Of a stretch of 30,108 nt of DNA, positions 15,001 through 24,000 are shown piece after piece. This DNA is from an archaeon (GTDB lineage Archaea > Iainarchaeota > Iainarchaeia > Iainarchaeales > 1-14-0-10-31-34): NCBI GenBank assembly GCA_043819075.1, contig JBDRFE010000025.1:1-30108 (forward strand), read 5' to 3'. A program made the position numbers. Each line of letters starts with the position of its first letter. Within the stretch, counting starts at the first letter, position 1.

Positions 15001-18000
15001 GGGAAAACTGGAAAAAATTTATGTGCTTCAAAAAGAAAACGACTTAATTAAAGTCTGGGTTAAAGAAAAAGAATTCAATGAAAATGAAATGAAAAAAGAT
15101 TTCAGGGAAATGTTTCTTTCAGAGAAAGGAGAAATAACAGTTGAAGGCAAAAAAATCGGAATAGATGGAAAAACCGGAAATACAATAATAAAAAGTTCTG
15201 GCTTTTATTACAGGAACGGGAAACTCGACGAAATTTCAGTGAAAGTTTTTGTGTGAACTGCTTGCAGTGTCTTCAATGATTTCGTCCATTGATTTCTTTC
15301 TTTGCTTCATTGAAAATTTTCCTTTTTCTGTTTCATTCAAGGCATTTCTCCCAAAAGTCTTTCTCAGCGAGGAATCCTCTATCAAAAGAGAAGTTTTTTC
15401 AGTTAACTTGGAAACAATTTTTGTTTTATCAAGTTTTTTTGATTCAGAAAAAAAACTGTAAGGGTTCAGAAAAAGCTTTTTATGATACCAGTCAGGGAAG
15501 CGAATGAGAAAACCTGTTTTGTTGTCCTGGTTTATTTCAGGCAAAGCCATTACATCAGATGAAACAACAGGAATTGAACTGGAAAAAGCCTGTAATGCAG
15601 TGAAACCAAATGACTCCATCAAAGAAGGCATTAAAAGAATGTCATTTTCCGGAAGGATTTTTTCAGAAAAATCTTTTGCTGAAGCAAAACCAAAATTTAT
15701 TTCAGGAAACATTTTTTTTGTTTTTTCGGAAAAGTTGCCAAAACAGTTTAATTCAACATCAAATTTTTTCCTGAGCTCCCTGAAAGCGGGAAAAACGAAT
15801 TCTGTTCCCTTGTACACAGGGTTTGTTGCAACAAACAACAATGAAATTTTTTCTTTTTCCTTTCTTTTTCTTTCTGAAGGGTTAACTGCAGGGTAACATA
15901 CAGTTGTTTTTTCTTCAAGTTTTTTTCCGCCGAAAAAAACAATTGTTTTTTTTGAGTATTCGCTCCATGGAACTATTTTTTTGCAGTAAGAGTTTGAAAT
16001 ACCTTTTTTTATTATGTTTTTTGCAAGAAAATGCATTTTGCCTGAAAAAAAATCATTTTTGTGGAAAAAACTGTAAAAAGCGTTAAGGTAATGAAATTCC
16101 TCAACATCAGCTATCCACGGGATTTTATTCAGCGGAAAAACCTTGAAAGCGTAAATAAGTTCAATGCTGTTTTCTTCAATCAGTTTTTTCGGATAATAAA
16201 CAAAATTAATGAAAGGAAAAAAAGGGTATGGAAGGCAGTGCCTTGAAGAATTAAGGAAAGGCTTTTCCCGCGGAATAGAAAAAATTTTTTTATTTGAACC
16301 ATTTAAGAAATCAAATGCTTCTGTCCTTATGTCAAGGCCGTCAAAAAAAATGTTCATAAAAAAATTGCATTATTCTGGCTTTAAACCTGCTGGATTTCAG
16401 TTAAAATTCCCTGCTCTGTTTTAGTAAGAACAAAAACAGTTTTTTCGCTGAAAGAATGCTCAAATGGAACAAGATTGAACTGCCCTGAAAAAAAAGTTTT
16501 CTTTTTGCCGTATTTTTCAAGCAAAACAGTTGCCTCCAAAGAATTTGAATCAGCTTTTACCCGCCATTCAAGCAATGGCTCTGCAGTAATGCTTAAGCTT
16601 GATTCAGTGCTCATTGAATTCAGTTCAGCTGATGCAGCAGAAAAAGAATCAGAAAAATCTTTTGCCTTTAAGGCGTCTAATGCATAAATGCCCAAAAAAA
16701 ATGTTTTTGAGATAACCGGAGTGAACAACAGCATTACCGAAAAAAACACTGACATTAAAAGGATTAATTCAAGTGAAGCCTGGGCTTTCATTTAATGTCA
16801 CTTATTTCATCAAAAATGCGGTCAGCTTTTTTTTCTATTACTTCTGCGCCTTTGGTACCGGTTTTCTGCAATTGTGTTACTAAAATTAATGCAACTGCAA
16901 CAACTGCTGCAAGCAGTACAATCATTTCAACTGAAACCTGAGCTTTGTTTTCCATGAAAAAAAACCTTTCAGGAAAGGAATAAAAACAGTTTTCAACGTT
17001 AATTGACGAAAAACAATAAGAAAAAGCAAATGGTTTTATTGCTTTAGTTCAGAAGTTATTTAACAAACAAAAACTAATTTTGTGATTTAAATGGTTTCAA
17101 GAGAAACAAAAGATATTGCGATTGCATGGATTGCCTTAAGCGTGGCTTTTGCCTTGGCTTTCAGCAACCTTAACTTAATTGGGGTTATTTCAGGAAACTT
17201 TTTGCAGGCAGTTCCGTTGTTTATTGTAATGTTTCCTGTTTCATTGTTTGTTGTGGGAACAGCTTTTGTTTTCCACGAACTAGGCCACAGGAATGTTGCA
17301 AGGCATTTTAATTTTGTCGCTGAATTCAGGAAATGGAATCAGGGATTAATGATTGCATTAGGCTTTGCTTTTCTCATAGGAGCAATTTTTGCCGCACCAG
17401 GAGCAGTTTACATTGGCGGGAAAAAGAAAAAAAACTGGGATGAACAGTCAAAATGGGATTCAGAGTATCCAGAGTATGCTTCTTCAAATGATGAATCAAA
17501 TGAATTAGGGTTAATTTCTGTTGCAGGAGTAGTAATCAATATAATTCTTGGATTTGTTTTTCTTGGATTGCTGTTGTTTTTGCCTTCTTTTGGGGCGTTT
17601 GACTTTATTCTTAAAATGGTTTTCAGTTTAGGCTATACAATAAATTTTATTCTGGCAGGGTTTAACCTGCTTCCATTCGGCCCGTTAGACGGAAAAAAAG
17701 TAATGCAATGGAATCCAATAATTTGGGGAATACTGTTTTTGCCTATTGCAGCATGGTATTTCTTTTTTTTGTAAAACAGTTCAGCCCACATAATTTGGCT
17801 TGAAAACAGAATAATGCTGGGCAAACATTTTAGGAATACTTTAACCAACATAATTAGGTTTAAAGACGGAATAATGCTGGGCAAACTCTTCGTAAGCCTC
17901 TTCTGTTTCCTTTGAAATTGAAGGCCTGATTTTTTTTAATGCTTCAAGAAAATGAGTTAACTGAATTGGCTTTGCCTGCATTTTATTTTCTTTTAAAGAA

Positions 18001-21000: not shown

Positions 21001-24000
21001 TGAAATCAGTGCAAAAGAATCGTTTTCTTTTTTTACTCCGATAGAAAAATCCAGTGAAGTTTTCTTGAACCAGTTTCTTTCGCCGTAAATCATGAAAGAA
21101 CCGGATTTCATTGATTCTCCTGAAGGCGCTTTCTTGCTTACTTGTTCAGGCAAAACAGAATAAACATCAACCGAACCAAAACCTGATTTCCATGCACTTG
21201 AAAAAATTGCAGCAAACTCAGCTGTCTCCTTTAATGAAGCCTGGGAAGCAGAACCATTTTTTGCTTTAAGAATGCAGTGCGGGGCGCCGTGGATTTCTGC
21301 ATGAAAATACAAATCAGTTTTATCCATGTGTTTTTTTACCAGTTCTTCATTGCTTTTTGTGTCTCTTCCAGCAACTGCCAGCAATCCGTCTGATGAAAAA
21401 AACCAGTGGAATTTCTCAAACCAGCTTTTCTTCCTTTTTTTCACCAAAACATTTTTAGGTATGGCTTCATGTTTTAGGTTCATTTCATTAATTTTTTTCT
21501 CTGATTCCTTTAATGCTTTTCTCAGGCCCTCAATTTTTTTCCTGCTCTTCTTTGATTTCTCAAAAAAAGCTGAAGCATTTTCGTTCAGGCTCTTGTTTAA
21601 GTCAATTTCAATTTTCATTCAACCAATCCCTTTTTCTTTTTCAAGAATGCTTATAATCGAAGAAGTCCTTGAACCGATTTTATGGAAAGGCGCTGTAGCA
21701 TAAATTATTTGCCTGTCCTTAATCAATTTATGAATGCCTTTTATTTTTTCATAATATTTTTTTGTAGTTGATTCATGAAATGACTCAATATCCCTGTAAA
21801 AATGCCTTAACAAAAGATTCCATTTTCCAGGCCCAATGACACCTGAAACCATGTAAATGTTGTCGTCTTTTTCAACTGCAGCCAGAAAGTTTTTCAGGAT
21901 TTCTTTTTCAGCAAAATCCACTTGAAGCATTTCAATTACCTCTAACTTGAAGCCAAATTTATTGAAATCAATTTTCGGGCCAAATCCCTGCAACACCCCG
22001 TCTTTCATCATGAAGTCAACAGAAGACTTTATTGTGGCTTTATGGAAACCAGAATACCGCTTAACCTGCCTCATATTCGGGACAACAGAGCCTTTTTTAA
22101 GCAAAGCCTCCAAAGTTTTTAATCTAATACTATCATCTGGCTTCATCTGAACAGCCATAACAAAATCACTGTAAAAAAAATACAATCAAAAGATATTTAA
22201 GTGTATTTTTTGGCACATTAAAAACAGTATAATATATAAATACCAGTCCATCGCTTTAGTTAATGCAAAAGAACAAATCAAATCTGGAGGGATTCAATTC
22301 TAGAGAGAAAAAAAATAAACGAAAAAAAGAAAGAGGCGGGGATAGGCTCACCAGGCCAATCTGGTTTTTGAAAGATCCCCCCTCTATAAAAACCTAATTC
22401 TTTTGCATTTCCTCCTTTCCTGTTTTCTCTGGATAATTTATTAAATTTGTTGAAGCATACTTGTTTATGGAAAAAGAATTACAGGATGAAAAATGGAAAA
22501 ACGTTGATTCAGGGAATACATGGATTGGGTGGAAAAAAATGTACTGGAGCAATAATGACAAAGGGCCAAGCCTTGGCTTTCCTTTGATTTTGTTGGTTGT
22601 GGGAATTTACTGGCTTGGAAGCGAGTTAGGGGTTTGGCCTGTTTCGTTTTCAATCTGGCCTGTGCTGTTAATTGCTTTGGCCGGCTACTGGCTGATTAAA
22701 GGATTAATTTACAAGCGTTAAATTCTCCACATTCTTTTTTTCGGAGTCCTTGCTGGCTTGATTCTTGCAAGCCTCCTGCGTGCAATCAGATGCTTTCTTG
22801 AATGCATTACTTTCCGAATTCGTTTCCTTGAACTGGCTTCTTTAACCCATTTATCTGTTACCATCAGTATTCCTTGTTCCTCTATTTTCCCGTTATTAGT
22901 ATTTTTCACCCAATTGGATTCTTTTTTATGATAAACCAGTTTAACCAGACCATCTTTCAGCAAACGCCTGTGCATCAACCTTCCAGAATGGAAAGTTGCA
23001 TCATACAAAAAAAATCTTATTCCATGCCTAATAAATGATTCCCAAATGTATTTTGATGGGAGAACACCAAATTCTTTAACAAAACCACGCAAATGCCTGT
23101 TGTTTGTCTGACCATAAAATACTTCGCAGAGCCTGGCTGAAGTGGAATGCCAAACAAATGCCACCAAGTCGTTTCCGCAGTAAATTCCTCTCCCATGGCC
23201 TTTTTTAAAAAAGCTTTCAGAATAAGAAGAAACATTAACTCCCAAAGATTTGTGAACTTCAGAAGAAATTTCTTTTCCAAAAGAATCTATGAGTTCGCGT
23301 GGAAGCTCGGAGAAATCTAAAAAAAACCTGAACTCTGGTTTTTGGCGCATAAACAGATTGAGTTAAAAGAATTTATTTAGCTTTTGTTTTGGTTTTAGCT
23401 TTGGTTTTTTCTGCTAATTCTTTTTTTTCCTGCATTTTCTTTTTCCATTCATCTTTGCTCGGGCAGTCAGGGTCAATGCACATATTGAACCTGAATCTTT
23501 TTCCCTGCACTGAAACCATTGGCATTGAACAGATTTTGCATTTATCGTCTGTTGGGGAAACTTTTCCTTTTTGAGGCAAAGGATAAGAGTTAGTGCAGTC
23601 AGGGTAACTAGTGCATCCTAAAAAATATTTTTTGTTCCTGCTAAAAATAATTCTCAGGTTTCCTTCACTGCATTTAGGGCATTTGCCTACAATCCTGTCC
23701 TCGCTTAAGCCTTCTTTTATTTCGTTTGCAATTAAAAGCTTGTGCAAAAACAGGTCTTTTACAATAACTGAAAGAAGGTCTCTTGAATGCGCTACAACCT
23801 CTTCTTTTGACTTGTTTTTGACTGAAATCAAATCCATTTCTTTTTCCAAGTCTGAAGTCATTTCAGGTTCTATAACCTTGCTTGAATACTTTTCTAATAC
23901 ATCTGTTACTGCAAAAGCCAGATTGGTTGGCTCAATTGCTTTTGCCCCTAAAATATATTTTCTTGCAAAAAGTTTCTGGATAATGTTATGCCTTGTTGAT

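Follow-up and report, generated by a model that had tools for sequence, protein, structure and literature searches.

Introduction

In eukaryotic ribosome quality control (RQC), Rqc2 recruits Ltn1, Ltn1 ubiquitylates the chain and Cdc48 extracts the ubiquitylated product. In B. subtilis, RqcH carries its anticodon-binding DR/EIM motifs in NFACT-N and the tails it adds lead to ClpXP. For archaea, passages of PMC9540759 and PMC6514570 describe the disposal of rescued nascent chains as open. Division of this protein family into two genes is already on record. The Nanoarchaeota arCOG01695/COG1293 'predicted RNA-binding protein' is given as split (NEQ438/NEQ506; Nst1_176/Nst1_251) in Table 1 and supplementary material of Podar 2013 (PMC3655853). 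The 332-aa NEQ438 was later entered as NFACT in the NFACT supplement (PMC4075521), and NEQ506 was not found in the supplement of either paper. In the cluster table of supplement 3 of an mSystems 2024 study (PMC11237513), cluster 73 is labelled 'fission', with arCOG01695 and K24971 NEMF/RQC2, and its split is non-syntenic in 57 assemblies (Micrarchaeota 16, Woesearchaeota 12, Altiarchaeales 8, Nanoarchaeales 2, others); the main text does not mention NFACT or RQC.

Here we analyze a 30,108-nt stretch of an Iainarchaeales genome (GCA_043819075.1, contig JBDRFE010000025.1; hereafter the window), in which the C-terminal half (C-half) of a two-gene RqcH lies upstream of cdc48. Given the records above, the split itself is not new. 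The genome-wide survey's note read the neighborhood as an archaeal form of the eukaryotic complex.

Results

Gene content of the locus

The four minus-strand open reading frames (ORFs) lie where the survey had placed them, with gaps of 0, -1 and 47 nt (Table 1). Two genes listed as belonging to no family are assigned here to an Lrp/AsnC-type regulator and a degenerate HD domain. The latter, a 186-aa protein, resembles HD clusters in Atlas features (0.96) and structure (TM 0.84), which indicates an HD-like fold, and lacks the metal-binding doublet of HD phosphohydrolases. In an alignment, the doublet reads HS in the window and HS, HC, HL or HN in 10 Iainarchaeota-type relatives, and is intact in the Woesearchaeota homolog L074. 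The protein is probably catalytically dead. Its gene is a lineage-limited insert, found after the C-half in just 6 of 54 genera; the tight four-gene string of this genome is thus not the conserved unit. Cdc48 has the N domain and two intact AAA rings of the Cdc48/VAT group, with both Walker A/B motifs, aromatic KFVGE pore loops and arginine fingers, and its C-terminal end reads ...PNYVG. It is the sole two-ring AAA gene among the PF00004 matches of the genome. A search of viral contigs returned no relative.

Table 1. Features of the locus and of the separate N-half gene, with the basis for each assignment
Feature	Position	Strand	Basis and context
M50 membrane metalloprotease	17091..17774	+	PF02163; convergent with cdc48; member of the conserved block
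Cdc48/VAT AAA+ unfoldase, 789 aa	17841..20210	-	TIGR01243 over cut-off; CDC48_N, CDC48_2, two AAA
TATA-like TTTAAA, candidate cdc48 promoter	20234..20239	-	29 nt 5' of the cdc48 ATG
Degenerate HD-domain protein, 186 aa	20258..20818	-	Atlas structure and feature likeness to HD clusters; alignment
C-half of archaeal RqcH/NFACT, 266 aa	20818..21618	-	NF041120 380-645; PF05670; human NEMF
Lrp/AsnC-type regulator, 179 aa from ATG	21619..22158	-	NCBIfam Lrp E 1e-4; Atlas 0.97
Conserved non-coding RNA-like element, ~100 nt	22286..22385	+	Just upstream of and divergent from the Lrp-like gene
topA, type IA topoisomerase	23373..25457	-	PF01131; upstream member of the conserved block
N-half of RqcH	C26:31007-32125 (L001:7008-8126), outside the window	+	NF041120 5-368

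An RqcH in two pieces

As the survey's note held, NFACT/RqcH is coded by two genes at two loci. The two products tile the NCBIfam model RqcH_arch (NF041120) without overlap (N-half, E 1e-50; C-half, E 1e-98), and neither alone passes its 400-bit cut-off (332 bits for the better-scoring half, 173 for the other). The domain order NFACT-N, HhH, coiled coil with middle domain, NFACT-R and C-terminal domain is complete across two ORFs on different contigs rather than within a single polypeptide. The C-half comprises the last middle-domain strand, the second coiled-coil helix, NFACT-R (Pfam NFACT-R_1, E 3e-35) and the C-terminal domain, and is matched by human NEMF residues 461-649 (E 8e-33). Foldseek with a full-length relative retrieves 9gy4 (E 1e-38).

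By pairwise mapping onto a full-length model, C-halves start at residues 382-389 in 141 of 150 cases and N-halves end at residues 383-388 in 30 of 48. This break falls between strands 379-383 and 387-391 of the middle-domain hairpin in a predicted model (pLDDT 94), which places the cut in the loop between two middle-domain strands, at the tip of the coiled-coil arm. Each half retains its own coiled-coil arm as far as that loop. The tRNA-contacting DR and E-x-x-x-x-G-N loops are present in the N-half (D93, R94, E108, G113, N114); R94 is kept in 46 of 48 sequences, D or E at position 93 in 43 of 48 and E108 in 48 of 48. The C-half had been called the tRNA-binding half, a description that does not fit, since the DR/EIM motifs lie in NFACT-N and hence in the other gene. 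In the C-half, D102 and H106 of the NFACT-R D-x-x-x-H motif are invariant (150/150), and their spacing suggests equivalence to the B. subtilis DWH.

Distribution of the split

All 147 Iainarchaeota matches and all 71 Micrarchaeota matches show the split, as does most of the Woesearchaeota phylum. Two unlinked genes with the same cut site recur across the lineages compared, a set outside which the Nanoarchaeum sequences lie. Both halves are present in all 71 Micrarchaeota and in 5/5 divergent genomes of family f5, where NF041120 overturned an apparent N-half loss based on Pfam, which finds the N-half in 3 of 15 genomes. A euryarchaeal split, raised by five records titled 'Methanosarcinales' (L089, L091, L093, L095 and L106), was rejected: all nest among Woesearchaeota in a quick tree, the type of tree used throughout. 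Four of the five share neighbors with Woesearchaeota locus L087, and the records are probably mislabels or the result of transfer. Repeated origin of the split at a single loop is possible, and it is therefore a poor marker for DPANN unity.

Gene order around the C-half and cdc48

The survey's observation that the C-half lies upstream of cdc48 extends throughout Iainarchaeota, applying to at least 117 of the 147 phylum genomes with NFACT-R. This is a lower bound that includes the window's own pair and leaves aside 68 CDC48_N matches. The cdc48 gene is directly downstream on the same strand in at least 98 genomes and within 3 kb in at least 19 more; among the matches listed, it is nearby in another orientation in 4, elsewhere in 14 and not listed in 12. 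Inserted genes notwithstanding, cdc48 is within three genes of the C-half in 47 of 54 genera (87%). The specificity claimed for this link is not borne out, in that unrelated neighbors of the C-half block are retained as often: the Lrp-like gene in 50 of 57 genera, the convergent M50 gene in 35 of 41 and topA in 39 of 52. These control neighbors, rather than all gene pairs genome-wide, form the retention baseline.

At three loci abandoned by cdc48 (L248, L268 and L269) the M50 gene stayed, and 14 of 20 Micrarchaeota regions retrieved likewise have M50 beside cdc48. Genomes G161 and G201, which occupy separate branches, also show the arrangement topA, C-half, cdc48, M50, and the C-half/cdc48 pair thus predates Iainarchaeota. 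The pair is present in 2 of 70 Micrarchaeota genomes and in none of 80 genomes of the Woesearchaeota phylum or 55 of Asgard archaea. In one Micrarchaeota clade (10/70 genomes) it is the N-half that lies within 2.3 kb of cdc48, in divergent orientation. At the N-half locus of the present genome, a convergent PRC-barrel gene and then AMMECR1 lie downstream; the PRC gene, a further control for neighbor retention, accompanies the N-half at 33 of 34 loci, and AMMECR1, proposed as a partner, does so at 1 of 35 overall and at none of the 29 whose flank reaches 1.3 kb or more. Open-access literature yielded no report of the cdc48 link.

Transcription units

In 27 of 29 genera the Lrp-like gene ends -4 to 17 nt from the C-half, and in 29 of 31 the C-half and cdc48 are 39 nt or more apart. 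A TATA-like site precedes cdc48 in 28 of 41 relatives versus 16.4 in shuffles, with 0/300 shuffles reaching 28. The signal is weaker where the C-half directly adjoins cdc48 (20/31 versus 13.2; 4/300 shuffles), and a slight excess precedes the C-half itself (9/28 versus 4.8; 6/300 shuffles). Judged from these sequence patterns, cdc48 probably has its own promoter.

An RNA-like element upstream of the Lrp-like gene

The element upstream of the Lrp-like gene is conserved and covarying, and consists of the SD-like GGAGGGAT, an A-rich linker and a long variable stem around the invariant GCTCACCA. It probably encodes a small RNA that runs divergently to the Lrp-like gene. Rfam gave no match at E<=0.5, tRNA prediction gave none, the genome's tRNAs include no near copy and, by eye, no start codon is conserved after the SD-like motif. 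A role as an rRNA guide is not supported, with no match that holds in all four genomes with rRNA. A sigma-70 scan, which is unsuited to archaea, found nothing at the element. No prior description was found in open-access literature.

Searches for a Cdc48 partnership

The survey's note proposed a direct Rqc2-Cdc48 partnership older than eukaryotes. The eukaryotic link runs through Ltn1 and ubiquitin, and the genome (90.6% complete) has no match to E1-like ThiF, for which the control matched in 12 of 14; an E2 search was uninformative, its control matching nowhere. Scanning 150 C-halves for Cdc48-binding patterns gave VIM 0, VBM 0 and SHP-like 2. No fusion occurs among 98 longer homologs, which is weak evidence. 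All 55 Asgard NFACT matches are full-length, and the shortest distance to a listed cdc48 is 13.9 kb; 0/55 lie within 10 kb, with both genes on one contig in only 16 and 4 matches unlisted. Given the counts of the pair in Micrarchaeota, the Woesearchaeota phylum and Asgard genomes, an origin before eukaryotes is therefore unsupported. A complex prediction with the N-half, the C-half and Cdc48 residues 8-190 scored 0.00 twice; three chains fall outside its calibration and the controls were not folded, and the result is counted neither for nor against binding or reassembly of the halves.

Discussion

We consider it likely that this is an ordinary archaeal RqcH in two pieces, placed beside cdc48 by inherited order, with no Cdc48-specific partnership needed. 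The halves would most likely rejoin through pairing of the helices CC1 (N-half) and CC2 (C-half), with the opening strand of the C-half completing the middle-domain sheet. By analogy with B. subtilis and yeast, the rebuilt RqcH would bind large subunits with peptidyl-tRNA, recruit tRNA and add a C-terminal tail; Pth2 would then release the chain, and the 20S proteasome with an AAA partner would destroy it. The C-half would lie upstream of cdc48 because the arrangement topA, C-half, cdc48, M50 was already present in the Micrarchaeota-Iainarchaeota ancestor and gene order changes slowly in Iainarchaeota. The C-half would be translated together with the Lrp-like gene, and cdc48 would probably be expressed from its own promoter. 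The adjacency appears to reflect inheritance of gene order and does not prove an ancient partnership.

A functional coupling without direct binding, in which Cdc48-20S would read RqcH tails in archaea that lack ubiquitin, the part played by ClpXP in B. subtilis, and closeness would be selected for co-regulation, is unlikely. Archaeal Cdc48 is able to work with 20S, according to the relevant part of PMC5543420. This genome encodes 20S alpha and beta and Pth2, lacks a ThiF match, and belongs to a line in which an NFACT half approached cdc48 twice separately. However, unrelated neighbors match the co-location of cdc48, the cdc48 promoter is probably separate, the link is absent from other split-gene lineages, and a second, single-ring AAA gene exists whose size suggests PAN. 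Furthermore, the Cdc48 tail has its Tyr third from last, out of the HbYX register.

A broader translation-stress module is a long shot. Here, an Lrp-type amino-acid sensor would set C-half supply and so switch on assembly of the two-piece RqcH, the ~100-nt RNA with its free SD-like 5' end would act on ribosomes, and Cdc48 and 20S would clear tailed chains without ubiquitin, hence the NFACT halves beside cdc48 twice in the Micrarchaeota-Iainarchaeota line.

That the halves do separate jobs without rejoining, with the C-half for example a stand-alone NFACT-R RNA-binding protein like CCDC25/Jlp2, is very improbable. Eukaryotes have such proteins, the N-half diverges faster (31% versus 36% column identity for the C-half) and is poorly recovered by Pfam in f5, and the genes are unlinked, with 0/71 Micrarchaeota having both within 15 kb. 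Yet both halves are retained together, their coiled-coil arms reach the same loop and their motifs are intact.

We give scarcely any credence to the original proposal, in which the C-half would dock on Cdc48 and pass the chain to it, an archaeal form of the eukaryotic RQC that predates eukaryotes: the widespread adjacency and the presence of both proteins in eukaryotic RQC favor it, but in eukaryotes it is ubiquitin that brings in Cdc48, published accounts treat Ltn1 and Npl4 as innovations of eukaryotes, Asgard genomes have neither split nor link, and the C-half has no fusion, extension or known Cdc48-binding motif.

Under the preferred reading of a two-piece RqcH in inherited order, the natural break marks where the protein tolerates cutting and lets the two arms be tested separately. 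The cdc48 neighborhood offers an inexpensive starting point for in vitro work but does not count as evidence of an ancient complex; that an NFACT gene and cdc48 came close a second time, through the N-half in one Micrarchaeota clade, leaves room for a functional link.

Compared with the eukaryotic RQC (Rqc2, Ltn1, Rqc1, Cdc48-Ufd1-Npl4, Vms1), this genome likewise has NFACT and Cdc48, here as adjacent genes, whereas the eukaryotic Cdc48 is linked via ubiquitin and no ThiF/E1 match occurs here. Cluster 73 of PMC11237513 is a table row that does not name Iainarchaeota, and no neighborhood analysis was found with it. The Nanoarchaeota split is of the same family in two unlinked genes; the pertinent parts of PMC3655853 give no tie to ribosome rescue or cdc48. 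With archaeal RqcH (NF041120), B. subtilis RqcH, yeast Rqc2 and human NEMF, the protein shares domain order, fold and motifs, and it differs from all of them in being made as two chains.

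Gene content of the locus

The genome-wide survey's note described four minus-strand open reading frames in the window, and a check of the window's ORFs finds all of them, with their lengths and gaps, as described. Its assignment of the 266-aa gene to NFACT likewise holds, as the product matches NFACT-R and corresponds to archaeal RqcH positions 380-645 (C-half), and the N-terminal half that it placed elsewhere is a 372-aa gene on contig C26 of the same genome, corresponding to positions 5-368 (N-half). The 186-aa gene, reported as having no family, instead encodes an HD-fold protein without the HD aspartate. 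The unnamed upstream gene encodes an Lrp/AsnC-type regulator, the cdc48 gene is complete and contains no intein, and the records closest to the C-half carry the title Iainarchaeum. As many as 28 of 59 loci have, close to the conserved gene block around cdc48, small membrane or pilin-like families comparable to the small genes of the window. Elsewhere in this genome (contigs C2, C12, C19, C30, C36, C41, C59, C60, C68 and C71), many tRNA genes have long introns of ~50-180 nt, several with a common core sequence, and their anticodon calls are unreliable; these introns may be of group I-like origin.

Positions of the features of the window and of the N-half gene
Feature	Position	Strand	Remark
Small genes	13585-16791		One gene weakly matches a class III signal peptide
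M50 protease gene	17091-17774	+	
cdc48	17841-20210	-	
HD-fold gene	20258-20818	-	
C-half	20818-21618	-	
Lrp-like gene	21619-22158	-	
Structured non-coding element	22286-22385	+	Just upstream of Lrp-like gene
Two family-less ORFs	22461-23350	+ and -	86 aa (+) and 210 aa (-); inserted between RNA element and topA
topA	23373-25457	-	
N-half	C26:31007-32125		

Distribution of the split

NFACT-R is found in 147 of 151 genomes sampled from the window's phylum, Iainarchaeota, with every frame at most 375 aa, and two separate halves occur in all 71 genomes of the phylum of a Micrarchaeota-titled record; one of these genomes, G184, is unpublished and enters the tallies alone. Among 96 genomes of the phylum to which a Woesearchaeota-titled record belongs, 84 have an RqcH match; in the matches listed, at least four genomes show a full-length form and at least 69 show both halves apart. 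The other 12 genomes have no match, and cdc48 is present in all 96. All 55 matches in the Asgard phylum of Heimdallarchaeum lie in frames of 664-758 aa. When mapped on the predicted structure of a full-length Woesearchaeota protein (pLDDT 94), for which NEMF is the best Foldseek match, the break falls between middle-domain strands 379-383 and 387-391; C-half starts map to residues 382-389 in 141 of 150 cases and N-half ends to residues 383-388 in 30 of 48.

A quick tree requires at least two changes between whole and split forms and groups split with whole Woesearchaeota at 97%, and a single clade of all split forms receives a p-AU of 0.035 on a 45-row subset picked after that tree was seen. 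Such changes would mean that one loop was cut twice or that a re-fusion took place, between which these sequences discriminate weakly. Five records titled Methanosarcinales (loci L089, L091, L093, L095 and L106) bear Woesearchaeota-type split genes and are probably mislabeled. One N-half lies within an 820-aa frame bearing TPR repeats (L204:4360-6822, genome G186), and genomes G174 and G242 also show long N-half frames.

The split itself is a known DPANN trait. In the relevant passages, Podar 2013 (PMC3655853) records a protein split into NEQ438-506 and Nst176-251, and its supplement places both Nst1 genes in arCOG01695 (COG1293). In PMC4075521, NEQ438 (332 aa) appears as an NFACT protein, and the neighbors named for archaeal NFACT genes are Mut7-C and AMMECR1. 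According to parts of PMC11237513, arCOG01695/NEMF is a case of fission, with the pieces unlinked in 57 assemblies headed by Micrarchaeota, Woesearchaeota and Altiarchaeales. An open-access literature search found no paper on a cdc48 neighborhood of NFACT.

Gene order around cdc48

The reported proximity of C-half and cdc48 is confirmed in at least 117 of 147 Iainarchaeota genomes and, among 60 loci drawn one per genus, in 47 of 54 genera with sufficient flank. The block runs topA, Lrp-like gene, C-half, cdc48 and convergent M50 protease, and its other joints are retained as often (topA 39/52, Lrp-like 50/57 and M50 35/41 genera). The gap from the Lrp-like stop to the C-half start is -4 to 17 nt in 27 of 29 loci, that from C-half to the cdc48 start at least 39 nt in 29 of 31, and at three loci cdc48 has departed while M50 stayed. 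At the other locus, the N-half adjoins a PRC-barrel gene in 33 loci out of 34 (the best-scoring loci plus five of family f5). The C-half/cdc48 link is one joint of a longer block, and the spacing agrees with this. A TATA-like hexamer, scanned with a consensus that we assumed, lies 24-46 nt 5' of cdc48 in 28 of 41 loci versus 16.4 in shuffles (control before M50, 30/35 versus 13.8); the excess is smaller where cdc48 directly adjoins the C-half (20/31 versus 13.2) and slight for the C-half itself (9/28 versus 4.8).

The pair of cdc48 and M50 membrane protease (window 17091-20210; Micrarchaeota loci L192-L205) adjoins in both phyla, convergent in Iainarchaeota and on the same strand in Micrarchaeota, and is more lasting than the cdc48/C-half neighborhood. 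In the divergent family f5 (L218, L247), the cdc48 beside the C-half has diverged strongly (long branch; 35% in the N domain), which may reflect fast evolution or another paralogue. In L036, L037, L038, L042, L044, L192, L212, L214 and others, Cdc48 frames span 1059-1320 aa and show HN(S/T) junctions, which probably mark inteins at several sites; some topA frames measure 1231-1320 aa.

The order topA, C-half, cdc48, M50 is kept in 2 of 70 Micrarchaeota, and since these two sit apart in the Cdc48 tree, it dates to the common ancestor with Iainarchaeota and has mostly been lost since. The position of cdc48 is best read as inherited gene order, which we consider the probable explanation. Counter to this reading, the N-half is divergent to cdc48 within 2.3 kb in 10 of 70 Micrarchaeota genomes, all of one clade (100% support), usually with an OB-fold gene in between (L192, L195-L204); this single additional event could be due to chance but still counts against the reading.

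Functional coupling of the RqcH halves with Cdc48, without binding, is unlikely. Archaeal Cdc48 is able to supply substrates to the 20S core (passages of PMC5543420), so Cdc48 could plausibly act in the pathway in any archaeon, and the gene order adds little to this. Separate jobs for the two halves are decidedly improbable; motifs for function are retained in both halves. Least credible is a direct ancient NFACT-Cdc48 complex, the partnership older than eukaryotes proposed from the string: the C-half/cdc48 link is real and well conserved in Iainarchaeota, but it is absent from 80 Woesearchaeota-phylum genomes (C-half/cdc48 pair within 5 kb), the flanks of 18 full-length RqcH loci and 55 Asgard genomes (within 10 kb; both genes on one contig in only 16). 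No C-half/Cdc48 fusion was found, nor, in C-halves, any Cdc48-binding motif of the patterns we take to be known.

A structured element beside the regulator

Fifty-nine copies of the element carry an invariant GCTCACCA on the + strand within a stem, whose arm varies in 50 of 59 yet folds well (mean z -3.4; z < -2 in 50/59; window copy -2.0). G-U pairs prefer the + strand (34 versus 10), and an SD-like GG(A/G)GG lies 43-83 nt upstream in 56 of 59. A sequence model finds the element in 42 of 59 Iainarchaeota loci, part of the 42 being training copies, and in 0 of 20 Micrarchaeota loci; its spacing to the Lrp-like gene is constant in 41 of the 42, and topA adjoins in 27. Its 11-nt motif is present in 109 of the 151 genomes, by chance in some of them. 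Rfam, tRNA, rRNA-target and literature searches gave no match. Our best guess is a small RNA whose transcription runs away from the regulator and which the regulator controls; the rival is an opposite-strand 5' leader carrying an anti-SD.

Comparison with known rescue pathways

The genome has genes for Pth2 and for two subunits of the 20S core, along with two eRF1_3 genes sized like pelota and aRF1, and has no ThiF match. The two halves would reassemble, and the rebuilt RqcH would add a tail to the stalled chain, which Pth2 may release for degradation by 20S with PAN or Cdc48. For Bacillus subtilis, parts of bioRxiv 2020.09.03.281279 describe NFACT-N contacting the tRNA anticodon, the coiled-coil tip the stalk base and NFACT-R the A-site finger, with ClpXP following from the tails. 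Eukaryotic chains go to Cdc48 after Ltn1 ubiquitylation, according to sections of PMC12868832 and PMC5989216, and Ltn1 and Npl4 are described in passages of PMC6514570 as eukaryotic additions.
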